The notes below the pieces were generated by a model. That model was not told where the DNA came from. It made no database searches and was given only the letters and a program-made list of their open reading frames with translations. From Patescibacteria group bacterium (GTDB lineage Bacteria; Patescibacteriota; Minisyncoccia; Minisyncoccales; JAHCRE01), in assembly GCA_020148145.1 (NCBI GenBank), contig JAHCRE010000016.1, positions 4,456-68,455 on the forward strand: a stretch of DNA of 64,000 bases, given 5' to 3'. The translations under genes were made by a program, and so were the position numbers. Below, piece by piece: positions 28,214 through 38,474 of this stretch. Numbering within the stretch: position 1 is the first letter of the stretch; each line of letters opens with the position of its first letter.

Positions 28214-28357
28214 TTTATTTTAATTTAATAAGATAGACTTTTAATACTATCCGACCTTTCATCTTTATTTATTATACCTTACCTATTTGCAAATCAAAAG
28301 CCCGAGAAAAACACTTCAATAAATTCAGTGTAAACTTCTCGGGCGGGGCGGGCGGAA

Positions 28358-28735
28358 ATAAAAAAAGAAGGGGATCGAAATTATTAATAGTGATCCCCTA
28401 TGAATGGTTGGGCGGAGTTTTCTCCGTAAGGAGAAATCTCTGCAATTTCATTTCCAACGTAAGCTGTTGGATAGCTTTTAGCCTTTCGGCTATAAGCTAC
28501 CTTTTTGTGAGCATCTTCCGAAGAAAATGCTCTTTTGCTCTCGCTAGAAACGAGATTGAAGGGAGCCCCTTCCATATACCTGGCTTGATAGCCTGCCTTG
28601 GTAAAGCCTAAGCCCTACAAAGTACTCACTATTTTTTCCTTTCGGAAAAAGAATTTCTTCCTTCTTTTTGGGAACAAACAGGAGGTCACAGACATACTGC
28701 ACAGGATTGCAACAGTGATCCCTCTTCACTCTGCG
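28358..28735 (-). ncRNA. candidate structured ncRNA (about 380 nt) adjacent to the arrays; possible tracrRNA-like component
   Basis: - Minus-strand promoter TTGACA-16-TAATAT (plus coords 28764-28769 / 28742-28747).
- Terminator GGGGATC-N15-GATCCCC + TTCTTTTTTT (28370-28398).
- Several GNRA/UNCG-capped stems (CCGAAAGG, CUUCGGAAG, GCCGAAAGGC, CCUUACGGAG).
- Only short overlapping ORFs on both strands.
- The 3' part, AGAUUUC-UCCUUAC-GGAGAA, is complementary to the repeat segment UUCUCCGAAAUCU. Confidence 0.5.
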
Positions 28736-28870
28736 AGTTTCATATTAGCAAACCCAAGTATGTTGTCAAGTCCGTATAAAGTGAAAAAACTGTGGAAAAC
28801 TTTTACCCCGAGAAAAGCCGCAGAACCAGAATAAATTCGGTTCATAGTTTCGCTCTCGGGCGGGCGTAAA

Positions 28871-28891
28871 TAAAAAAGCCCTAAATAGGGC
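28871..28891 (-). terminator. intrinsic terminator closing array A1
   Basis: Minus strand reads GGCCCTATTTAGGGC + TTTTTT. The same hairpin recurs at the end of A2, A3, A4, A5 and A6. Confidence 0.65.
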
Positions 28892-28913
28892 CTAAATTTA
28901 TGGAACAGTTCGT

Positions 28914-29345
28914 AGTTACAGATTAAATCACTCGGAACAATACATGAAATAGGTTACAAGATTTCGGGAAAAACTCGGCATCTCGTTACGTATTTGATGG
29001 AAAAGCCTCACTTTATTACAAGATTTCGGGAAACCCAGGAATCGTCGTGGATTACAAAATTTCGGAAAGCAATAACTATGGAGATTACAAAGATTTCGAA
29101 GAATCACCAGCCTCACGGATTACAAGGTTTTGGAAAATTGCGATGAAGTATATATCAAGGCATTACAAGATTTCGGGGAATCGTTTCCTATGTGTGCATA
29201 ATTACAAGATTTCGGGAAATCGGATAATAGATGAGCGTCCATTACAAAGTCGCCGTAAGCACTGTTACGAGGTATACTGGGTAACGCAATTACAAGATTT
29301 CTGAGATTTTGCGCGGTAGTTTCGAATTACAAGATTTCGGAGAAT
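28914..29345 (-). CRISPR. CRISPR-like mini-array A1 (about 11 units)
   Basis: Units start (plus coords) at 28952, 29014, 29050, 29083, 29118, 29161, 29200, 29240 (degenerate), 29288 and 29325. Consensus ATTACAAGATTTCGGRRAAT. Variant repeat GTTACAGATTAAATCAC at 28914. Unit periods mostly 33-48 bp (62 bp at the degenerate distal end). Confidence 0.6.
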
Positions 29346-29394
29346 TTTAGGCATCAGCATTTTGGAGGATCGCTTCAAGCTTCGGTGACCGTGA

Positions 29395-29508
29395 GTTATT
29401 TGCTTTTCAACGAACTACTTATCTCCTCCATATTCCCTGGGGAATACTTTATGAGATATTATGGGCATGTAACATACCCGGGTATGGAAAAGCCTTGCTT
29501 TTCCATCC
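29395..29508 (-). ncRNA. conserved structured leader RNA L1 (tracr/scout-like candidate)
   Basis: Three hairpins on the minus strand: AUGGAAAAGC-AAG-GCUUUUCCAU (29484-29506), GGGUAUG-UUA-CAUGCCC (29463-29479) and UAUUCC-CCAG-GGAAUA (29431-29446). Then an invariant GGAGGAGAUAAGUAGUUCGUUGA. Paralogs L2-L6. Confidence 0.6.
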
Positions 29509-29514
29509 TTTTTA

Positions 29515-29543
29515 AGGGTAGCAAAAGAGAGATTCTTTGTCAA
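29515..29543 (-). promoter_or_regulatory. promoter of cassette A1
   Basis: Minus strand TTGACA (29538-29543), 17 bp, TACCCT (29515-29520). Confidence 0.55.
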
Positions 29544-29560
29544 TGTGGGTGGGCAAAATA

Positions 29561-29580
29561 AAAAAGCCCTAAATAGGGCC
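29561..29580 (-). terminator. intrinsic terminator closing array A2
   Basis: Minus strand GGCCCTATTTAGGGC + TTTTTTATTTT. Confidence 0.65.
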
Positions 29581-29613
29581 TGAGTTTAAAGAATAAGGAA
29601 GCTACATGAAAGT

Positions 29614-30315
29614 GTTACAGATTGAATCGCTTTCAACCCGGCATAATTTTTATCGAATTACGAGATTTCGGAGAATTTCAGGGGTAAACAGATTTGCTTG
29701 ATTACAAGATTTTAGAAAATCTGAGACGATTTATTGTTACTGCACGATGATACTCTTATACTCTGCCATTACAAGATTTTGGAGCTTAGGGAAATGTTCA
29801 TTACAAGATTTCGGAGAATCGTTTCCTATGTGTGCATAATTACAAGATTTTGGGAAATCGGACATGTGGTCTTCTTATTACAAGATTTCGTCGCATTTCC
29901 AGTTACAGATTAAATCGCTTTTTGTGGCAATGATAACTGGCGATGGGGTTACAGGGTTACAAGATTTCGGACACTTTGCTAATGGCGTTACAAAGTCGGA
30001 ATCAGCATGTAGTTACAAGATTGACATTAGGTAGATATTACAAGATCTCAGAAGAAATCCATTATCAAATTACAAAGATTTCGGAGAATAGCACATACTG
30101 AAGGTCCTTTAATTACAAGACTTCGGGAGACGACAGTTAGTCCTGGAATCGTTACCTTTTTAATCTTTTGGCGATTGCGAAAACGATGGACAGGTATTAC
30201 AAGATTTCAGCACAGTGAAAACAACAGTGAGAACAGTTACGCGCTGGATTATTCTCACAGATTACGAGGCTTCGGGAAATCATTAGGGTTCTCTAATTAC
30301 GAGATTTCGGATAAA
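29614..30315 (-). CRISPR. CRISPR-like mini-array A2 (about 17 units)
   Basis: Main repeat at 29657, 29701, 29768, 29800, 29839, 29877, 29956, 30037, 30069, 30112, 30196, 30261 and 30296. Degenerate copies at 29986 and 30012. Variant repeat GTTACAGATTRAATCGCTT at 29614 and 29902. Confidence 0.6.
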
Positions 30316-30379
30316 GCCTTTGAATATGGTTACTTCGCACCTTAAACCGGCGTTACCCTGTCATCAGCGTGACAACTTA

Positions 30380-30502
30380 TTACTGACTTCTTTGTTTGTC
30401 AACGAACTACTTATCTCCTCCATATTCTTTTGGGAATACTTTGGAAGACATTATGGGCATGTAACATACCCTTGGATAGAAAAGCCTTGCCTTTCTATCC
30501 GC
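30380..30502 (-). ncRNA. conserved structured leader RNA L2
   Basis: Paralog of L1 with the same three hairpins (GGAUAGAAAGGCAAGGCUUUUCUAUCC; GGGUAUGUUACAUGCCC; UAUUC-CCAAAA-GAAUA) and GGAGGAGAUAAGUAGUUCGUUGACAAAC. Confidence 0.6.
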
Positions 30503-30508
30503 TGACTA

Positions 30509-30537
30509 AGATTAGCAGAGGTATGCTTAGTTGTCAA
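30509..30537 (-). promoter_or_regulatory. promoter of cassette A2
   Basis: Minus strand TTGACA (30532-30537), 17 bp, TAATCT (30509-30514). Confidence 0.6.
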
Positions 30538-30564
30538 ATAAAAAGGGCGCTGCTTTGCAGCGCC
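30538..30564 (-). terminator. intrinsic terminator after the helicase gene
   Basis: Minus strand GGCGCTGC-AAA-GCAGCGCC + CTTTTTATTT, located 10 nt after the stop. Confidence 0.75.
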
Positions 30565-30573
30565 ACAAGAAAT

Positions 30574-32406
30574 TTAGGATTCTTTGGTTAAGAGTCGCAG
30601 TCCCTCCTCAAGGCATTCATCGAAAGGTGCTTCGAAACGTGCCCCTTCTAGCCACTCTGGTAAACCTCCTAAGACTCTGTTGAATTGCTTGGAAATAAAG
30701 AAGCACATTCCGATATCCTCTGCTGTTCGGATATTCCGACCTCTTACTTGTAGAGCCTTTACTGTAACTCGATATTTTATTAATCTCCAGCGCAATACTC
30801 CCCATCGTCTTTCCTCAAACTGTGATGCAGGATCCATTGGTCGTGGATATGGAGGTCTCAAGACCCAAATTACCGGAGCAATCTCTCTTGGTAAGTCGAT
30901 TCCTTCGCCGAATTGGGCTACTGTTCCAAGTAAGACATCGCCCTCACCTTCAATAAATCTCCTGGCAGCATCTTTCGCCTTTAATCCTGGTCCATAGGTC
31001 ATTATTTTGAAATCTTTGGAATGTCTTTCCAAAAATTTTAATCGCTCAGCTTCTGAGACAACGGTGATCAAAGATCGGAATTCCTTTTTCAGAAACTCAC
31101 GGCAACCTTTAGCAATTATGCTAAATGCTCGATTTTTTGCCCTAGCCAGTGCTCCTCTGCCTGGGTTAGCTTTCACTGCTAAATTCGGCGTATCGGTCGG
31201 TAGAAAGACTCTCGTATTTTCAATTGGGAAGGTTGATGTATAAACCTGGAAAGGAAAATCTATTCCTGTCTCAATGGCAAAGGTTTCTTTATCGCCTATC
31301 GTTGCCGAGTAAGCAATAATCCTTTCAATAGGCTCTAAAATTTTCAACCGAATCACCGGACTAACATAGAAGTGTCGAATACATAACTTACAGATTACTC
31401 TTGGCCCTCTCTTGCCCCTTTTCCTTCTCTTTTTCCTGTAGAACATAAAGACGTAATTCGATGGCTTCCGTGTTTCTGTACCTGTGGCATAGAATAATTC
31501 TTTGATATACCAGGGAATATGCCGAACAACTATTTCAAGGGTCTTCAAAGTTTTTCTATCTTTTTTTGGGTCTAAAATACCAAGTTCTAAGGCTTTATTG
31601 ATTGTCCCTCTAAGCTCTTTGGTATTTATTTCCTCGAGCAAAGAAATCAATCTTTTGATTTCATGGTCTGCTAAAAGCTCGGGTGGTTCCGTTGGTTTTA
31701 ATTTGGCAATCTTCATCATCTCTTCTAAGAATCTTTCCAGCAACCATTCTCTTCTAATCACTGATAATGCCTTTATCGCTCTTTTTAAGGTAAGGCCACT
31801 GATATCCCAAGAAAGAATCTGCCTTGTTACTTCGGCTAACCTATGAACTTCATCGATCACCAGTACCTTCGGTGGCGAAGCCTTGAATTTTTTCACGTAT
31901 AGCATGTGAGTGACAAGGTAAGCAATTGTGCAGACAATTATGTCTCCTTTCATTGCCCGGTGCTTTACCAAGAGATAAGGACAAGGCTCAACTCCTGGTT
32001 CTACTGTCTTGCCAGTGTCGAGATCTACCCTATGGGGACATTTTAACAATGAGCAAGGTGATTCTTCGGCTGTCACCTTTTCTCTTTTATCTTTGTAGAA
32101 AAGACAAGGATACTCATTCCTTCCATAGGCCTCTACCACTCCCTCTGGATACATTTTTTTGGCTTGTCTAACTAAAGTTTTGGTGGTGGTAGCGTAAATA
32201 ATTGGTTTTACCCCTATTTCCTTAAAGGCTTTTAAAGGAGTAACGCCAGTTGCTGTCTTTCCTCTTCCAGTTGGCATCTCGTGAAGACTTTTTTTGTGGT
32301 AGGCGATGAACTCTAGAGCGGCTCTCTGATCAGGCCTCATTTTCTTATGAGGGAAGCGTTTCTTAAACTCTTCAGACAGATGTTGCGGATGTTCCAGATG
32401 TTTCAT
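30574..32406 (-). CDS. XPD/DinG/Rad3-family SF2 helicase with Fe-S cluster domain, array-associated
   Basis: 610 aa.
- Q-like RPDQ.
- Motif I EMPTGRGKTA.
- Four Cys between motifs Ia and II (C101, C118, C123, C142; YGRNEYPC..SPCSLLKCPH..EPCPY).
- Motif II VLVIDEVH.
- Motif III YSATI.
- Motif V GTVAQFGEGIDLP.
- Motif VI QVRGRNIRTAEDIG.
Own SD AAAGAGGTGAA. Confidence 0.85.
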   Translation of the reverse strand: MKHLEHPQHLSEEFKKRFPHKKMRPDQRAALEFIAYHKKSLHEMPTGRGKTATGVTPLKAFKEIGVKPIIYATTTKTLVRQAKKMYPEGVVEAYGRNEYPCLFYKDKREKVTAEESPCSLLKCPHRVDLDTGKTVEPGVEPCPYLLVKHRAMKGDIIVCTIAYLVTHMLYVKKFKASPPKVLVIDEVHRLAEVTRQILSWDISGLTLKRAIKALSVIRREWLLERFLEEMMKIAKLKPTEPPELLADHEIKRLISLLEEINTKELRGTINKALELGILDPKKDRKTLKTLEIVVRHIPWYIKELFYATGTETRKPSNYVFMFYRKKRRKRGKRGPRVICKLCIRHFYVSPVIRLKILEPIERIIAYSATIGDKETFAIETGIDFPFQVYTSTFPIENTRVFLPTDTPNLAVKANPGRGALARAKNRAFSIIAKGCREFLKKEFRSLITVVSEAERLKFLERHSKDFKIMTYGPGLKAKDAARRFIEGEGDVLLGTVAQFGEGIDLPREIAPVIWVLRPPYPRPMDPASQFEERRWGVLRWRLIKYRVTVKALQVRGRNIRTAEDIGMCFFISKQFNRVLGGLPEWLEGARFEAPFDECLEEGLRLLTKES

Positions 32407-32458
32407 TCAATATTCACCTCTTTTTAAGGTTCTATAGATGGCAAAAGCCACCGTCAAT

Positions 32459-32487
32459 AAATTAGCACATTTTAAAATTTATGTCAA
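32459..32487 (-). promoter_or_regulatory. promoter of the helicase gene
   Basis: Minus strand TTGACA (32482-32487), 17 bp, TAATTT (32459-32464). Confidence 0.6.
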
Positions 32488-32488
32488 G

Positions 32489-32510
32489 AAAAAAAAGGCG
32501 CAAAAGCGCC
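32489..32510 (-). terminator. intrinsic terminator after the Cas12/TnpB-like gene
   Basis: Minus strand GGCGC-TTTT-GCGCC + TTTTTTTT, overlapping the TAG stop. Confidence 0.75.
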
Positions 32511-34447
32511 TAGTTGGTTTTGGGTTCCTCCATTGAAACTAAAGCTATGGCTAGATTCGTGTTGGTATCCCTTCCACACTCACATGTAAGGCTTTTTCGA
32601 TCTTCGACTATCACTAAATTCTGCCAGGTTCCTCCAATTTCCTTTTCGCAATAAGGACAGACTGCCACTTGATTCGCATTAAATTCTCTCTCTTCCACAG
32701 GGAATCCCCGCATTTCCAATTTATATCCTATTCGAGCCCTAAAGATTGAGTCAATCCAGTATCGCAGTTTTCTATTTAGTTCTCGCCTTTCTATCTCTCC
32801 TCTTCTGTAAAGTCTCTTTTGGATGTTCAGTAAAATCACTTTACCCGGCATTGTCATCAAGTACTCAGCTATCCCTTTTGTCTCATTGTGCAAGACCCAC
32901 TTTATCTTCCTTGACTCTTTTAACCTTGGTTTCTTGAAATATCCCCGAGAAGCTTCTTTCCTTTGCTTGAAGTAGTAGTTCTTAATTGAGATTATTTCTT
33001 TGTGTCGGAAAAACCTCACTTTTCTTTGATCTTCTTTAATACTGAGTACACAGGTCGTCTCTAGACAATAGGCAATGATGTGCAACCAGCCCTGGTCTTC
33101 CTTTAAAGGGACTACCTTTGTTAAAGGAAAGATGAAGAAATATTCTTTCTTTTGTCCTTTCCCAATGTGACGGAATAACTCTGGATATCTCGTAGGGTCG
33201 CCAAAGACACGCTCAGCTTTATGATATTCCTCAATCCACCTGGTACCAATGATTAAACCTTCTTTTCTCTTGCCTCTTTCCCAAAGGCCAATGCTGATTT
33301 TCCAAAGACCTAGCTCAACCCTGATGAATTTGTACATTCCTTTTGAGTATTTCACCTTCGTTGTTGGAAAGCTTGGAATCCTATCTGGCCTTATTTTTCT
33401 GAATTCTCTATCTAGCTGACATTCTGGCCCCCAATCGTATTCTCTGTAGTTTTCGCATCCTTCGCAGATTGGCGTTGCTATCCTCTTTACAATCTCCGTA
33501 GTCTTTGCTTTTCCCTCCGAAATCATGACTTTCCTTCCGAGATTCACTCTCGTTCTTTTTAAGCGTTGGAGTTCCTCCTTTATCGTTTTCTTTTGCTTCC
33601 TATCCGTTGCAACTTTAAGAAATCCTTCTGCCTTTTTTATTTCTTGCTCAATGCTTCTGAGTATCTCTTTTTTAGCCTCAATTTTCCTCAATGTCCTCGA
33701 AGATATTTCCTTTGGCTTCTCTTGCAAAAGTTCATTGATTCCTCTTAACCTTTCTCTTCTTTTTTTTCTGTTTTTCTTTGTGATATCCTGGCCTAACCAA
33801 TAGAAGAGGAAGTGTCTAAAGGGCGAAATTAGGGCTCTTGTCTCTCGCCATTCATTTCTAATTTCTTGTATCTCCTGCGGTTCATCAACGGGTTCTTTTC
33901 CTATTCCGCTCTCTTTACATTCTTTGAATTTTCTCTGAAACTCATTTTTCTTTAAGATTTTTCCCCAGTTGTTGCTTAACCAAGCATTCATCATTGACTG
34001 GGCAGCAGTGAAGGCTAAATCGATGAAGGTCTTTAATGGAATCTTAAAGATTCTCTTTGCTTCATAGGCAACTTCTTGCCGGGCTATTTTCCCAAAAATA
34101 TAAGACCTTGCACAGGCAGAGCAATACTTTTGACCATCGAATTTTGATTCCATCACCAAATTCGTTTCTTTTTGGCAATTAGCGCAGACTCCTTTTTCTT
34201 TTGGAATGATGTAAAATCTCCTAAGTCTTTGAGAAAATCTTCGCATGCAAAACTCACCAGCCCTGCTAAACTCATCGATCAATCTCTCAAAGTCTTGCTC
34301 TGGAATTCCGGCTATTCTCAAAGGGATTCCAAGAGTCACTATATTGAATCTTGTCTGGCATTCCTCGCAAGCCATCGGATTTTTCTTTCCTGAAATCTTA
34401 ATTTCAACCTGGCATTCCGGATTCGGACATTTTACTTTTTTTACCAA
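32510..34447 (-). CDS. TnpB/Cas12-like (type V-like) RNA-guided effector candidate with apparently degenerate RuvC
   Basis: 645 aa. TTG start 7 nt after GGAGG.
- The C-terminal third matches the TnpB/Cas12 core: YWIDSIFRARIGYKLEMRGFPVEE (YK.E..G.V block), Zn finger CPYC..x19..CEC, and RuvC-III-like GRDTNTNLAIAL.
- The RuvC-I position reads IIAYCLETT (no GxDxG).
- The RuvC-II position reads VILLNIQ (no Glu).
- Three further Zn-ribbon-like Cys pairs lie in the N-terminal and central parts: CPNPEC..CEEC, CANC..CSAC and CEGC..C. Confidence 0.7.
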   Translation of the reverse strand: MVKKVKCPNPECQVEIKISGKKNPMACEECQTRFNIVTLGIPLRIAGIPEQDFERLIDEFSRAGEFCMRRFSQRLRRFYIIPKEKGVCANCQKETNLVMESKFDGQKYCSACARSYIFGKIARQEVAYEAKRIFKIPLKTFIDLAFTAAQSMMNAWLSNNWGKILKKNEFQRKFKECKESGIGKEPVDEPQEIQEIRNEWRETRALISPFRHFLFYWLGQDITKKNRKKRRERLRGINELLQEKPKEISSRTLRKIEAKKEILRSIEQEIKKAEGFLKVATDRKQKKTIKEELQRLKRTRVNLGRKVMISEGKAKTTEIVKRIATPICEGCENYREYDWGPECQLDREFRKIRPDRIPSFPTTKVKYSKGMYKFIRVELGLWKISIGLWERGKRKEGLIIGTRWIEEYHKAERVFGDPTRYPELFRHIGKGQKKEYFFIFPLTKVVPLKEDQGWLHIIAYCLETTCVLSIKEDQRKVRFFRHKEIISIKNYYFKQRKEASRGYFKKPRLKESRKIKWVLHNETKGIAEYLMTMPGKVILLNIQKRLYRRGEIERRELNRKLRYWIDSIFRARIGYKLEMRGFPVEEREFNANQVAVCPYCEKEIGGTWQNLVIVEDRKSLTCECGRDTNTNLAIALVSMEEPKTN

Positions 34448-34603
34448 ACTCTCACCTCCCGACCATTACGCCGCGTTTCATACCCATCCATTTCTTTGAT
34501 GGGCTTCTCCCCTTTACAATCCTTTTAGACTGCTTTAGAGAGATTTAGGCGGTGAAACACCACCCTTTGCACCCATCATCTAATTGTCAAGATGCTAACT
34601 TCA

Positions 34604-34632
34604 AATATAACAAAAAATGAAAATTTTGTCAA
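34604..34632 (-). promoter_or_regulatory. promoter of the Cas12/TnpB-like gene
   Basis: Minus strand TTGACA (34627-34632), 17 bp, TATATT (34604-34609). Leaves a 5' UTR of about 150 nt that contains a second TTGACA (34585-34590) and small hairpins. Confidence 0.65.
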
Positions 34633-34696
34633 ATAAAACCGAGTGAAACTCTCGGGGGTGGGCGACGGCGAAAATAGAAAAGCCCTAAATAGGGCT
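34631..34696 (-). terminator. tandem terminators closing array A3
   Basis: Minus strand AAGCCCTATTTAGGGCT + TTTCTATTTT (34671-34696), then CCGAG-AGTTTCA-CTCGG + TTTTATTT (34631-34658). Confidence 0.65.
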
Positions 34697-34729
34697 TAAG
34701 GCTTAAAAGTATTATGACATGGGAATCTA

Positions 34730-35060
34730 ATTACAAATTCAAATGGACGGATTATTACTGTCATCCAAGCATTGTTACAGATTAAGTCGCTTCCAACTTG
34801 GCATAATTTTTATCGAATTACAAAATTTCGGAGGATCAGATTTCCAGCTATTACAAGATTTCGGAAGACCTCACCGACGATTGGAATTACAGGACTTCAG
34901 AGATGTGTATAATTACAAAATTTCGGAAAGTCACTAGGGTCAAATTGGTTACCTTTTTAAGCTTTTCGAAGACGATGGACAAGTATTACAAATGTCTGAA
35001 ATCTGCGGAAATTACAAGATTGCAGAGAATGGCTTCGACGGTTACAAGATTTCGGGAAAT
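34730..35060 (-). CRISPR. CRISPR-like mini-array A3 (about 9 units)
   Basis: Main repeat at 34817, 34850, 34886, 34912, 34985, 35011 and 35041. Degenerate copy at 34730. Variant repeat at 34774. The distal ~140 bp are nearly identical to the distal end of A6. Confidence 0.6.
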
Positions 35061-35136
35061 CGATGTATCATTGCACTTGTTACCTCTTTAGTCTTTTAGA
35101 TGAACGAGGCAGGTCGAGGAGTTAATCTTTTCCACC

Positions 35137-35260
35137 GAACAACACTGTCTTTTTGTTTTCAAAGAACTATTTACCTCCTCCATGGTCCCTGGGACCACTT
35201 TGAGAAATATTATGGGCATGTAACATACCCAGGTATAGAAAAGCCTTGCCTTTCTATCCA
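35137..35260 (-). ncRNA. conserved structured leader RNA L3
   Basis: Paralog of L1. Hairpin 3 is GGUCC-CAG-GGACC here versus UAUUCC..GGAAUA in L1, a compensatory change. Hairpin 1 is UAGAAAGGC-AAG-GCUUUUCUA. Confidence 0.6.
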
Positions 35261-35266
35261 TTTTTA

Positions 35267-35295
35267 AAAATAGCAAAAGAGAGATTCTTTGTCAA
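35267..35295 (-). promoter_or_regulatory. promoter of cassette A3
   Basis: Minus strand TTGACA (35290-35295), 17 bp, TATTTT (35267-35272). Confidence 0.55.
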
Positions 35296-35318
35296 ACAAA
35301 AAAGCCCTGAATAGGGCC
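35296..35318 (-). terminator. intrinsic terminator closing array A4
   Basis: Minus strand GGCCCTATTCAGGGC + TTTTTTGTTT. Confidence 0.65.
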
Positions 35319-35350
35319 TAAGTTTAAAGAACAATTCAAAATAATCCCAA

Positions 35351-35915
35351 GTTACAAAGATGTGATTCAATATTCAATCTGTTCTTTATTACTTCACGAA
35401 CGGAGGAAAGTATGAGTTACAGTAATATTCTTTTTTTGCACCAACAGCCTTTTGTTACAGATTAAATCGCTTCCAACCTGGCATGATTCTTATCGAATTA
35501 CAAGATTTCGGAGAATCATCGGTGTGCTTCTATTACAAGGTCTCGGCAAATCTTGGGCAATGGTAGTTGCATTACAAGATTTCTGAAAATCTATCTGCTT
35601 CATTACGATAGAGTTTCGCTAACAAAGTCTCGTTGTAATGTCCGGCGTTACATACTTGAAAGTGTGAAGTTACAGATTAAATCGCTTCCTCGGAGGCTTC
35701 AGATTACAAGATTTCGGAGAATGACACATATTGAGGATCCTTTAATTACAAGATTTCGGGAAATCGGACATGTGGTCTTCTTATTACAAAATTTCGGATT
35801 TGTTCGCCCTCGCCTCAATTACAAGATTTCGGAGAATCGTTCCAGTCTGGTCGGGCGGCATTACAAGATTTTGGGAGATTATCAGAGTATATCGTAATAT
35901 TACAATAGTCATTTA
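35351..35915 (-). CRISPR. CRISPR-like mini-array A4 (about 13 units)
   Basis: Main repeat at 35497, 35532, 35571, 35703, 35745, 35783, 35818 and 35860. Degenerate copies at 35351, 35602 and 35899. Variant repeat at 35454 and 35669. Spacers between clean repeats are 15, 19, 11, 22, 18, about 15-19 and 22 nt. Confidence 0.65.
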
Positions 35916-35997
35916 GGAACATCGACGTTACTCTACATCTTAAACCAGCGTTACTCTTGAATAAACGGGATAGGTCGAAGAGTTAATCTTTTTCATT

Positions 35998-36122
35998 GAA
36001 CAACACTGTATCCTCTGTTTTTCAAAGAACTATTTACCTCCTCCATGGTCCCTGGGACCACTTTGAGAGATATTATGGGCATGTAACCTACCCAGGCATA
36101 GAAAAGCTTTACCTTTCTATCC
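35998..36122 (-). ncRNA. conserved structured leader RNA L4
   Basis: Paralog of L3 with the same three hairpins and GGAGGAGGUAAAUAGUUCUUUGAAAAAC. Confidence 0.6.
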
Positions 36123-36128
36123 ATTTTA

Positions 36129-36157
36129 AAGGTAGCAAAAGAGAGGCTTTTTGTCAA
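36129..36157 (-). promoter_or_regulatory. promoter of cassette A4
   Basis: Minus strand TTGACA (36152-36157), 17 bp, TACCTT (36129-36134). Confidence 0.55.
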
Positions 36158-36169
36158 TGTGGGCGACCA

Positions 36170-36193
36170 AAACAAAAAAGCCCTGAATAGGGC
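36170..36193 (-). terminator. intrinsic terminator closing array A5
   Basis: Minus strand GGCCCTATTCAGGGC + TTTTTTGTTTT. Confidence 0.65.
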
Positions 36194-36226
36194 CTGAGGT
36201 TAAAGAACAATTTGGTAAATGTATCC

Positions 36227-36642
36227 GTTACAAGGGAAAAGCTCGTTTTAAATTACTGCACTACCGATGAGTAAGTGGTTGGGCGAAAGGTTACAGGTTA
36301 CGGCAACACCTCGAAGCACTGTTACAGATTAAATCGCTTTTTTCTTTTGTTTCCTATTATATCTTGACGCCAATTACAAGATTTCGGAAATACCGCGGGC
36401 TCTTATTACAAGATTTCGGATTTGTTCGCCCTCGCCTCAATTACAAGATTTCGGTGAATCGGATATCCCTTATTACAAGATTTCGGAAAATAGCACTAAT
36501 AAGCGAAGCTGGGTTACAAAATTTCGGAAAATGATTGTCAGAGTATTACAAGCTTCATAGGTTGGGACCCGGGGACCGTATTACAAGATTTCGAAAGATC
36601 GCAATGAAATATATCTCGAGGCATTACAAAATTTCAGGAAAT
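36227..36642 (-). CRISPR. CRISPR-like mini-array A5 (about 10 units)
   Basis: Main repeat at 36373, 36405, 36440, 36472, 36513, 36545, 36580 and 36623. Degenerate copy at 36227. Variant repeat at 36321. Confidence 0.6.
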
Positions 36643-36710
36643 AGTATATGACCAATGTTACTTTTCTAAGCTTTGGGGCCAAAGAGATGAAACGTTACCT
36701 CTTTTCCATC

Positions 36711-36835
36711 GAACAACACTGTATCCTCTGTTTGTCAAAGAACTATTTACCTCCTCCATGGTCTCTGGGACCACTTTGTGAGATATTATGGGCATGTAAC
36801 ATACCCAGAGATAGAAAAGCCTTGCCCTTCTATCC
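36711..36835 (-). ncRNA. conserved structured leader RNA L5
   Basis: Paralog of L3/L4. The tail reads GGAGGAGGUAAAUAGUUCUUUGACAAAC. Confidence 0.6.
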
Positions 36836-36841
36836 CTTTTA

Positions 36842-36870
36842 AAGGTAGCAAAAGAGAGATTCTTTGTCAA
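36842..36870 (-). promoter_or_regulatory. promoter of cassette A5
   Basis: Minus strand TTGACA (36865-36870), 17 bp, TACCTT (36842-36847). Confidence 0.55.
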
Positions 36871-36880
36871 TGTGGACGGG

Positions 36881-36908
36881 CGAAAATAAAAAAGCCCTAA
36901 ATAGGGCT
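36881..36908 (-). terminator. intrinsic terminator closing array A6
   Basis: Minus strand AAGCCCTATTTAGGGCT + TTTTTATTTTC. Confidence 0.65.
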
Positions 36909-36941
36909 TAAGGCTTAAAAATATTATGACATGGGAATCTA

Positions 36942-37500
36942 ATTACAAATTCAAATGGACGGATTATTACTGTCATCCAAGCATTGTTACAGATTAAATC
37001 GCTTTCAACCTGGCATAATTTTTATCGAATTACAAAATTTCGGATTTGTTCGCCCTCGCCTCAATTACAAGATTTCGGGAGATTAAAGATAAAAGTCGTT
37101 GTCTACGAGTTCGATGAAATTACATGAAACATTTTCAGACTCATGGTGTTACTAGGCTACTTGAATCAGCTTGAATTACAAGATTTCGGAGGATCAACCA
37201 ATTGGCGGCATATTACAAGATTTCGGAAGATCGCTCGATCAAATTACCCCAACGAGTCTTCAAATTACAAGATTTCGTCGTATTTCCAGTTACAGATTAA
37301 ATTGCTTCCTCGGAGACTTCAGATTACAAGATTTCGGATAATGGAAGGTGGTTACTTTTGACAACAGCAAATAAACGAGTTCGCATTACAAAATTTTGGA
37401 GAATCCACGTGTCACAAACCATGTTATCGATCAGTTACAGGGGTGAGGAATTACAAGATCTCGGAATTCTCATTGAATGGGAATTACATGATGTTTTGAC
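36942..37500 (-). CRISPR. CRISPR-like mini-array A6 (about 13 units)
   Basis: Main repeat at 37029, 37064, 37175, 37212, 37264, 37323, 37385 and 37450. Degenerate copies at 36942, 37119 and 37483. Variant repeat at 36986 and 37289. Confidence 0.6.
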
Positions 37501-37504
37501 TTAT

Positions 37505-37626
37505 ATTACTGACTTCTTCGCTTGTCAAAGAACTATTTACCTCCTCCATATTCTTGAGGAATACTTCGGTAGATATTATGGGCATGTAACATACCCGTGG
37601 ATAGAAAGGTATACCTTTCTATCCGC
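37505..37626 (-). ncRNA. conserved structured leader RNA L6
   Basis: Paralog of L2. Hairpin 1 is a perfect 11-bp stem GGAUAGAAAGG-UAUA-CCUUUCUAUCC. Hairpin 3 is UAUUC-CUCAA-GAAUA. Confidence 0.6.
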
Positions 37627-37632
37627 TGATTA

Positions 37633-37661
37633 AGATTAGCAGAGACATATTCATTTGTCAA
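37633..37661 (-). promoter_or_regulatory. promoter of cassette A6
   Basis: Minus strand TTGACA (37656-37661), 17 bp, TAATCT (37633-37638). Confidence 0.6.
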
Positions 37662-37666
37662 GCAAA

Positions 37667-37771
37667 GCCCCGAGACTACAACCCACCCAAGGACGGGGCG
37701 TTTCGCTTCGCAAAAGCGCCTCGCGTCCCGACCACATCCTCCCGCCTTCGGTGGGCCCCTAAACTCTCGGG
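37667..37771 (+). repeat. family A long-form GC-rich element; right copy of the 104-bp identical direct-repeat pair
   Basis: Identical over 104 bp to 26843-26946, in the same orientation. Confidence 0.85.
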
Positions 37772-37853
37772 CGGGCGCGGGCAGTGGGCAAAAATAAAAA
37801 AGCTGAGGATTTAACTCAGCTCATAGTGGTTTTGAAAAAGAGAGCCTCTATAA

Positions 37854-38474
37854 TCATTTAGTTTCTTGAGTTATTGATTTTGGATTTCCACAGATAATAG
37901 TTGAGATTACTGACAGTCCTGAACGTTCTATTTCTTGTCTGTTCTTAAGTAGACTCTCTGGTTTATGGCAGATGGTATACGCGTTTACTGGTAATCCTAA
38001 GCGTTTTAATTTTCGTTTGTTTTTAAGTAGACTCTCTGGTCTGCAGCAGATAGTAGTTGCATTTACTGATAGTCCTAGGCGTCTCAGTTCCTGTCTTTTT
38101 TTAAGCAGGTTTCCTGGAATCAAGGCTATAGTTGTTGAAGTTACTGGCAACCCTAAGCGTTTTAATTCTCTTAATCTCCCTGGGTTTCTTAGAGCTATTT
38201 TTTTGCTAAATCCTGCTTTTTCGAATTCCCTGATTAAGGAATGCATAAATTTGTTTATCTCTGAGGGATCAAATTTAAATAAGTATTCACCCGCTGCCTC
38301 ATGTTTAGCAATAATGCTAGCGAATTGACTCTCAATACCTCTAATTTCTAGTTTATGCCTTAACCATTTCCAGGGCCCTTTCCTTTTATCTGAACTGAAG
38401 ATTTCTAATAGTGTTTCTTCAATTTTAGGATTAACTTGAACGGCTTTATAGGCTATGCCTGGGTATGGATTCAT
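37854..38474 (-). CDS. helical-repeat protein with four to five 26-aa mTERF-like repeats
   Basis: 206 aa. The C-terminal half is made of tandem units GL[PS]V..TI...P..LLK....L.RL. Examples: GLPVTSTTIALIPGNLLKKRQELRRL, GLSVNATTICCRPESLLKNKRKLKRL, GLPVNAYTICHKPESLLKNRQEIERS. Terminator hairpin at 37810-37835. Confidence 0.55.
   Translation of the reverse strand: MNPYPGIAYKAVQVNPKIEETLLEIFSSDKRKGPWKWLRHKLEIRGIESQFASIIAKHEAAGEYLFKFDPSEINKFMHSLIREFEKAGFSKKIALRNPGRLRELKRLGLPVTSTTIALIPGNLLKKRQELRRLGLSVNATTICCRPESLLKNKRKLKRLGLPVNAYTICHKPESLLKNRQEIERSGLSVISTIICGNPKSITQETK

Follow-up and report, generated by a model that had tools for sequence, protein, structure and literature searches.

Can an RNA-guided protein that has lost its own nuclease site work instead through a dedicated DNA helicase? 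This question is raised by a locus in a Patescibacteria group bacterium, which we analyzed within a stretch of 64,000 nucleotides (nt) of contig C7 (positions 4456-68455; the window). The genome comprises 809 kb in 26 contigs and is 96% complete. A search of sequencing runs for the locus listed its probable source DNA run, a marine sediment metagenome, and no RNA run. Between 28.4 and 38.5 kb of the window, the locus carries genes for a 645-amino acid (aa) effector (P0001) and a 610-aa helicase (P0002), together with six cassettes (A1 to A6) in which a structured leader precedes an array of short repeats. A preliminary description made from the sequence alone had placed all elements on the minus strand, with four cassettes upstream and two downstream of the two genes, and this arrangement was borne out. 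We give a probability of roughly 0.55 to the reading that the locus encodes a nuclease-inactive RNA-guided system, derived from TnpB/Cas12, that targets DNA together with a dedicated XPD/DinG-type helicase. The system is apparently undescribed, and we regard it as a candidate for a new subtype of type V or a new exapted-TnpB system.

The effector and the helicase

P0001 belongs to no Pfam, NCBIfam or PADLOC family, and its relatives are few: an exhaustive HMMER search of 1.84 billion sequences returned about 22 cluster representatives, none of them annotated, and a word-indexed search of 5.8 billion proteins returned three. Neither P0001 nor P0016, used as a single query, retrieved related loci from viral or genome collections. 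The closest effector relative (74% identity; L002:440-2669) is split into a 655-aa open reading frame (ORF) and an 80-aa ORF in another frame, reflecting either a frameshift or an assembly error near the C terminus.

An AlphaFold2 model of P0001 built on an 18-sequence alignment reached a mean predicted local distance difference test score (pLDDT) of 88.5 and a predicted template modeling score (pTM) of 0.72. The top 50 PDB matches of this model in Foldseek were all Cas12f, CasX (Cas12e), Cas12g/k/i/h/m, TnpB or Fanzor structures, the best being 8hr5_A with an E value of 4.9e-11. VIA-align, run against all representatives, placed Cas12f 8dzj_A first (Z 14.6, 364 residues spanning positions 36-645), followed by dCas12f 9n9c_A (Z 13.5) and then by Fanzor2, Cas12k, Cas-lambda, Cas-phi and TnpB 8h1j_A (Z 11.2). 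At the sequence level, the family profile found TnpB 9nzp_A as its top hit among PDB sequences (E 0.022, over the RuvC-II/zinc-ribbon/RuvC-III stretch). PF07282 (Cas12f1-like TNB) matched 8 of the 18 family members with a best E value of 2.8e-5, P0001 itself giving no match at E <= 1, and the ESM Atlas neighbors of P0001 were all TNB clusters (score 0.95). The model contains WED, REC, RuvC-like and zinc-ribbon TNB domains, two extra N-terminal zinc ribbons and a long coiled-coil insertion, and the CxxC...CxC motif of the TNB zinc ribbon (C597, C600, C622 and C624) is nearly invariant in the family. As modeled, P0001 is a full-length TnpB/Cas12-fold protein, and by sequence it fits no named Cas12 subtype.

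The positions of the RuvC triad read AYG-P, L-N and a non-acidic residue in the 18 aligned relatives, and no aspartate or glutamate is conserved at any of them, either within the family or in the profile alignment to TnpB 9nzp_A. These alignments indicate that P0001 has very probably lost RuvC catalysis. An improbable alternative is that the effector is still a nuclease, or otherwise catalytic, by way of a rearranged site, in which case the locus would be a cutting type V variant with the helicase as a processivity factor, comparable with Cas12-Cas3. Catalytic rearrangements of RuvC are documented in TnpB/Cas12 proteins (PMC10691335), some relatives have an aspartate or glutamate two residues past the RuvC-II position, and H456, H520 and E522, which are invariant or nearly so in the family, could form such an alternative site, so that a small door stays open. 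However, the 18 relatives conserve no acidic residue in or around the three RuvC motifs, which favors the reading of a nuclease-inactive effector.

P0002 matches the Pfam families Helicase_C_2 (PF13307), DEAD_2 (PF06733) and ResIII (PF04851), and its best solved relatives are archaeal and eukaryotic XPD structures (E 2e-10). Walker A residues G47, G49 and K50, the DExH residues D185 and E186, and four cysteines at the position of the XPD cluster domain (C101, C118, C123 and C142) are all invariant in 12 relatives. Judged by these signatures, P0002 is a superfamily 2 helicase of the XPD/Rad3/DinG type with a putative iron-sulfur (Fe-S) cluster. The PADLOC model typeIV_DinG (PDLC01439) matches P0002 over its full length (E 8.2e-44), but because the same model matches all 14 of 14 control genomes, it shows only membership of the DinG/XPD family and not orthology to Csf4; the specific Csf4 models gave E values of 3e-5 and 2e-4.

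Overall, the protein assignments of the preliminary description stand. Its TnpB/Cas12-like 645-aa protein is a full-length fold match in the structure searches, its degenerate RuvC agrees with the absence of a conserved D-E-D triad from the aligned relatives, and its XPD/DinG-type helicase, with a putative Fe-S cluster, agrees with the Pfam families, the XPD structures and the four cysteines. Its statement that no known type V subtype has these features holds for Pfam, NCBIfam, PADLOC and the literature searched.

Cassettes and the leader loop

The leader core motif occurs in exactly six copies in the 809-kb genome, all at this locus: those of A6-A3 (37661-34672) precede the genes, and those of A2 and A1 (30537-28868) follow them. 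We aligned the six window cassettes with three from a related metagenomic locus. Across these nine cassettes, the leader blocks and two promoter-like elements, a TTGACA box and, 17 nt downstream of it, an extended -10-like TGCTA box, are invariant or covarying, and a conserved structured leader of ~110 nt is present in each of the six. A terminator-like hairpin closes each cassette and both genes, and 21 such hairpins were found compared with 10.3 +/- 2.8 in shuffles. Because a generic promoter scan revealed no overall enrichment (24 vs 23), the promoter calls derive from positional conservation only. With the promoters taken on that basis, the alignment and the terminator scan agree with the earlier claim that every cassette has its own promoter, leader, array and terminator.

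A repeat search returned 18 and 21 copies of a 21-29-nt unit. When the arrays were split at their invariant 3' end, GTAAY, 101 units were counted: 49 have a full ~16-20-nt repeat (consensus ~ATTyCCGAAATCTTGTAAT, with information content fading near position -20), 9 have a second repeat type that ends AATCTGTAAC, and 43 retain the GTAAY end only. GTAAY occurs 96 times on the coding strand of 3.3 kb of array, where ~6 occurrences would be expected from base counts, and 4 times on the opposite strand. The array content put forward in the preliminary description is thus present, but its figure of ~73 repeat units depends on the criterion applied, whereas its dimensions, a ~20-nt repeat and 11-22-nt spacers, were about right, as we estimate the window spacers at mostly 11-24 nt. 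Several spacers are duplicated between arrays, and the last three units of A3 are also present in A6. Because spacers are common to different arrays, the arrays appear to grow by segment exchange or duplication, with no visible acquisition. TIGR-Tas and box C/D-like guides, considered on account of the short units, were dropped after the fold search gave Cas12/TnpB.

The leader is predicted to fold into hairpins P1, P2 and P3, the last of them lying within a long-range stem that uses the GGAGGAG box, and compensatory changes are found in 11 of the 20 predicted pairs. The P2 loop shows complementarity to the final 5-6 nt of the repeat, and the two elements covary over five loci with four sequence variants. 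The loop GUUAC accompanies the repeat end GUAAY in the window, GUUGC accompanies GCAAC in L001 and L025, GUUUC accompanies GAAAC in L005, and GUCAAA accompanies UUUGAC in L153. Arrays are enriched only for the pentamer that partners their own loop, at 10-20 per kb. Most other pentamers occur at 0-3 per kb, and the highest non-partner value, 5.0 per kb, is a single occurrence in a 200-nt array. The repeat ends in either C or U, which is consistent with G-U wobble pairing to the G that begins the loop. Because the loop and the repeat end covary, the alignments indicate a pairing of the kind made by trans-activating CRISPR RNA (tracrRNA) or scoutRNA, equivalent to the guide-adjacent pairing inside an omegaRNA. 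Further, because the leaders end in GTAAY and each array ends with a ~20-nt non-repeat segment ahead of its terminator, the guide would follow the repeat on its 3' side, the arrangement common to all TnpB/Cas12 systems.

The scaffold is not a separate transcript unit: in each cassette the promoter box precedes it and the first repeat comes after it, with no intervening terminator. The 5' untranslated region (UTR) of the effector mRNA (34448-34600, minus strand) can also be aligned to the cassette leader over P2-P3-P4, but its loop is different, namely GUUUC. Similar scaffold-like elements precede the effector at L002:325-445 and, in part, at L151:150-255. Such an element could let the effector regulate its own mRNA.

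The appearance of the window arrays raises a further rival, which we consider highly improbable, namely that the cassettes are not guide arrays at all but structured small-RNA genes with decaying repeats, or remnants of mobile elements, whose linkage to the proteins has no RNA-guided meaning. The repeats of the window are indeed short, degenerate and irregularly spaced, Tandem Repeats Finder detects 0 of the arrays, and no target was found for any guide in the genome itself or, for three guides, in IMG/VR. Nevertheless, related loci have clean 36-nt repeats and 17-25-nt spacers behind a homologous leader, the loop and the repeat end change together, the neighboring protein has the fold of an RNA-guided enzyme, and in L153 a second scaffold copy starts at the stop codon of the effector gene, at the 3' end where TnpB genes carry their omegaRNA. 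These findings are more easily accommodated by guide arrays read by the effector.

Linkage, guides and a proposed mechanism

Effector, helicase and leader-array cassette occur together in the four loci that have enough flanking sequence: the window, L001, L025 and L153/L154. In L001 (effector 60% and helicase 51% identical), the order is cassette, ORF, effector, cassette, helicase, cassette; in L025, the C terminus of the effector is followed by a cassette and then by the helicase. In L153/L154, which come from two independent marine assemblies, the helicase (40%) is followed by a cassette of 36-nt repeats with two spacers, then by the effector (38%) and lastly by the second scaffold copy. The co-occurrence of genes and arrays that the preliminary description had proposed to look for in metagenomes therefore recurs in three further loci of different sequence. 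Because the flanking genes differ among all four loci, the effector-helicase module appears to move as a unit and not by conserved chromosomal synteny. A quick maximum-likelihood tree groups the window helicase with those of L001 and L025 (SH-aLRT 95-98) and places the four effector-associated helicases within a single 97% clade; of the 8 helicases from effector-less genomes, 6 lie outside it.

Contigs of only 2-4 kb, ending at a cassette or inside one, carry most other members of the effector family, as expected because repeated cassettes break short-read assemblies. A gapped leader pattern run over metagenome contigs gave no true cassette among the matches listed (at least 120, filtered with an nhmmer leader profile); the pattern, which contains a Shine-Dalgarno-like GGAGGAG, is too loose. 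Because the system is rare (~22 clusters in 1.84 billion), its contigs break at cassettes and its arrays escape repeat finders, surveys for CRISPR detection may miss it. In the most divergent family member (830 aa), the array that follows the gene (L152:2585-3309) has repeats containing the palindrome GTTGCAAC, and here the docking motif could pair with itself.

The distribution of the helicase bears on a second rival, which is unlikely though more probable than the others: that the effector and its cassettes act alone as a roadblock or repressor, as Cas12m and TldR do, with the helicase an unrelated accessory gene in the same island. The helicase family, with >165 homologs, is much wider than the effector family, and its patchy presence in 10 of 401 genomes of the phylum marks the helicase as an accessory gene; the effector family occurs in only one of the 401, the window's own genome. 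Most members of the helicase family are solo and in other contexts, including at least two complete-looking ones without arrays, beside a relaxase and a serine recombinase or beside ClpB, and P0002 itself has its own promoter box and terminator. On the other hand, the helicase is flanked by cassettes in the window, L001 and L025, and in L153/L154 it adjoins the effector even at 38-40% identity, the effector-associated helicases cluster in the tree, and the pair has different flanks in each locus, all of which argues for a dedicated helicase. Separately, a helicase of the same sub-clade is present in a genome with no detectable effector (G095, contig C2); directly upstream of it, at the contig start (L021:60-340), are two units that each consist of a promoter, ~70-80 nt and a terminator.

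We compared the 101 units with the 96%-complete genome that carries them. Both anchored and unanchored matches were no commoner or longer than those of shuffled units, with one exception: the unit at 29701-29735 (minus strand) has a 19-nt exact match to a DIT1_PvcA-like gene (C12:24480-24498), where ~0.02 such 19-mer matches are expected per shuffled-unit set. This match lies inside the coding region, extends across the boundary of spacer and repeat, and does not cover the first 6 nt of the presumed guide, which is the presumed seed. Three guides common to different arrays had no exact match in IMG/VR. We consider it very improbable that the guides regulate the organism's own genes as a multi-guide, TldR-like transcription-factor system. 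A dead effector, the lack of adaptation genes and guides conserved or duplicated among arrays would suit a fixed regulatory repertoire, and the DIT1_PvcA-like match could be counted in its favor; however, that match misses the start of the guide and runs into the next repeat, and the remaining self-matches do not exceed those of the shuffled units. By analogy, and because the distribution is patchy and accessory, a role in defense against mobile elements may be proposed.

No match to RAMP (PF03787) and no second TNB-domain protein was found in the genome. Its sole Cas1 homolog (PF01867, E 1e-48) lies on the 8.6-kb contig C9 (L157:2220-7759), which has no CRISPR array, ~2.6 kb from a protein-primed PolB (PF03175), and a Cas2 match below the cut-off also lies away from the locus. 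No adaptation module is linked to the locus, Cas1 and Cas2 having been looked for and Cas4 not searched. The C9 Cas1 was rejected as a trans-acting adaptation gene in view of its position beside a protein-primed PolB without an array; the pair looks like a casposon-like element, unusual for a Patescibacteria-type genome, or a mis-binned contig. The earlier statement that no ORF of the window resembles Cas1, Cas2, Cas4, Cas9, Cas3-HD or a Cascade/Csf subunit is supported by the absence of RAMP proteins from the genome and qualified by the Cas1 homolog on another contig; Cas4, Cas9 and Cas3-HD were not searched.

Taken together, these results suggest the following mechanism. Each of the six cassettes would be transcribed from its own promoter as one RNA, the 5' ~110 nt of which would fold into a scaffold (P1, P2, and P3 in the long-range stem) equivalent to the body of an omegaRNA or tracrRNA, whereas the remainder would form a string of short repeat-guide units available for processing. 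The P2 loop GUUAC would pair with the repeat 3' end GUAAY, in cis for the first unit and in trans for later ones, and would thereby place the ~11-25-nt guide that follows the repeat in the effector, as in the tracrRNA:crRNA of Cas12f and the scoutRNA of Cas12c/d. The effector would bind this RNA, find complementary DNA and form an R-loop without cutting, the RuvC triad being gone. The helicase would be loaded onto the displaced strand and would unwind or strip the target, so that replication or transcription of the mobile element is blocked or its DNA is exposed to host nucleases, following the CasDinG logic of type IV-A. More tentatively, at somewhat short of an even chance, the locus would be a class 2 counterpart of type IV-A, in which a dead single-protein effector hands its R-loop to an Fe-S helicase, autonomous scaffold-bearing cassettes provide guides through 5-6-nt docking, and a new type V subtype or exapted-TnpB system is maintained without Cas1-Cas2.

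Several of the observations above weigh against this reading: the near-invariant H456, H520 and E522 of the effector, the many solo helicases, the degenerate arrays that escape Tandem Repeats Finder, the duplicated spacers, the guides for which no target was found in the genome or, for three of them, in IMG/VR, and the lack of a linked adaptation module. To these must be added that the four loci belong to related lineages, so that their shared gene order could in part be inherited synteny, and that downstream of the effector relative in L151 lie ribosomal protein S20 and holA but no helicase, the upstream flank being truncated by the contig end.

If the reading is right, an XPD/DinG Fe-S helicase would be a new class of partner among the exaptations of nuclease-dead TnpB/Cas12 proteins, and the pairing of a binder with a DinG-type helicase known from type IV-A would have arisen a second time, on a class 2 chassis. 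With the scaffold as the leader of each array, the requirement on the repeat may shrink to a docking site of 5-6 nt, a minimal and easily reprogrammable handle, which bears on how CRISPR arrays arise from omegaRNAs and could allow a programmable DNA binder of 645 aa to be supplied with very compact, multiplexed guide arrays.

The minus-strand order from 38.7 to 28.3 kb is a tRNA, the 206-aa repeat ORF, A6-A3, P0001, P0002, A2, A1 and a ~370-nt structured-RNA unit, as detailed in Table 1. An Rfam scan of the window identified two tRNAs only. The ~370-nt RNA, directly after A1, has a very stable predicted structure (z = -5.9 vs shuffles) and matches no Rfam family, and a DNA search of 150 genomes from the class gave no homolog; a lysine riboswitch, suggested by a permissive scan, was rejected as sub-threshold and on the wrong strand. 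The 206-aa ORF contains three to four tandem 26-aa (78-nt) repeats and matches no Pfam, NCBIfam or PADLOC family, and an unrelated 178-aa ORF occupies its relative position in L001. Either element may belong to the system. A G+C-rich GCCCGCCCGAGAG-like motif lies just downstream of several terminators (28330-28360, 28850-28870, 34650-34670 and 37770-37790, minus strand), and in one copy, ahead of the effector promoter, it folds into a small hairpin. The G+C excess noted in the preliminary description is present but modest (0.38-0.42 vs ~0.35) and is not unique to the locus, as 8-11 kb of the window reaches 0.41-0.47.

Table 1. Window coordinates of the features of the locus, in minus-strand order
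Feature	Coordinates	Strand	Signals and content
206-aa ORF, tandem 26-aa repeats	37854..38474	-	promoter box 38550; terminator 37822-37800
Cassette A6	36885..37661	-	TTGACA box 37661; leader ~37627-37505; ~19 GTAAY-ended units; terminator 36916-36892
Cassette A5	36170..36870	-	promoter box 36870; leader; ~15 units; terminator 36195-36178
Cassette A4	35296..36157	-	promoter box 36157; leader; ~18 units; terminator 35319-35302
Cassette A3	34672..35295	-	promoter box 35295; leader; ~12 units; terminator 34704-34680
Effector promoter and 5'UTR	34448..34637	-	promoter boxes 34632, 34590
Effector P0001, 645 aa, TTG start	32510..34447	-	terminator 32511-32496
Helicase P0002, 610 aa	30574..32406	-	own TTGACA box 32487; terminator 30564-30546
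Cassette A2	29555..30537	-	promoter box 30537; leader; ~24 units; terminator 29581-29564
Cassette A1	28868..29543	-	promoter box 29543; leader; ~13 units; terminator 28893-28876
~370-nt structured RNA unit	28372..28769	-	own TTGACA promoter to terminator

Comparison with known systems

Nuclease-impaired effectors and effectors with added partners have been described, among them Cas12m, Cas12k, TldR, dCas12f with a sigma factor, Cas12-Cas3 hybrids and Cas12a2 with UvrD. We found no published pairing of a TnpB/Cas12 protein with an XPD/DinG helicase, membership of the inactivated branches Ri-7 and Ri-8 (PMC10691335) lying outside this comparison. The closest structural matches are to Cas12f (V-F), which likewise is a small effector with a zinc-ribbon TNB, has a scaffold RNA that pairs with the repeat and a guide 3' of it (here presumably), and lacks adaptation genes. 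Dead Cas12f variants resemble P0001 further in having lost the RuvC triad and gained a protein partner, as in the exapted nuclease-dead Cas12f with a sigma factor (PDB 9n9c, PMC13472631). However, sequence similarity to Cas12f is undetectable beyond the C-terminal ~90 residues of P0001, which has two extra zinc ribbons and the coiled-coil insertion; the partner here is a helicase and not a sigma factor; and the scaffold is the leader of each of six independent cassettes and not a separate tracrRNA gene.

The pairing of only a few nt of the repeat (here 5-6) and the short spacers recall the scoutRNA of Cas12c and Cas12d (V-C and V-D; PMC11127173), the latter also occurring in Candidate Phyla Radiation bacteria (10.1101/2023.12.12.571249). 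Cas12c and Cas12d differ in being large active nucleases linked to Cas1, and their scoutRNA is a separate gene, whereas the pairing element here is predicted to be a hairpin loop in a leader co-transcribed with the array. Cas12m (V-M), Cas12k (V-K) and TldR have lost or impaired RuvC sites and keep RNA-guided DNA binding, and associations of Cas12m and Cas12h with Cas3 are known (PMC10910872, PMC10691335). The present locus shares the loss of RuvC, and the recruitment of the helicase-nuclease Cas3 by some class 2 effectors is a parallel to its helicase. In contrast, it has another effector lineage, an XPD/DinG protein in place of Cas3, no HD nuclease and multi-cassette arrays, and, unlike TldR, no excess of guide self-matches to the host genome.

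In type IV-A, a nuclease-less effector works with the DinG/XPD-family 5'-3' helicase CasDinG (Csf4), whose ATPase is required for interference (PMC11127173, PMC10910872). Common to both are an effector without nuclease, a DinG/XPD-family helicase, the lack of an adaptation module and, as we propose, the logic of an R-loop followed by a helicase. Type IV-A, however, uses a multi-subunit Csf (Cas7/Cas5/Cas8-like) complex and Cas6, whereas this genome has no RAMP gene, and the Fe-S domain of CasDinG is vestigial, whereas P0002 retains four invariant cysteines. Because Csf proteins are absent and the Fe-S cysteines are intact, the locus is not a member of type IV-A; it would be its class 2 analogue in function.

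Finally, the locus departs from TnpB/omegaRNA elements in its lost nuclease, its many guides per scaffold and its helicase partner, and no transposase or transposon ends were seen here. It resembles them in the TnpB fold of the effector, in the L153 scaffold that begins at the effector stop codon as an omegaRNA does, and in the first unit of each cassette, which is a complete scaffold-plus-guide in cis. The layout of the cassettes fits the proposal that CRISPR arrays arose when the 3' segment of an omegaRNA was duplicated (PMC10691335).

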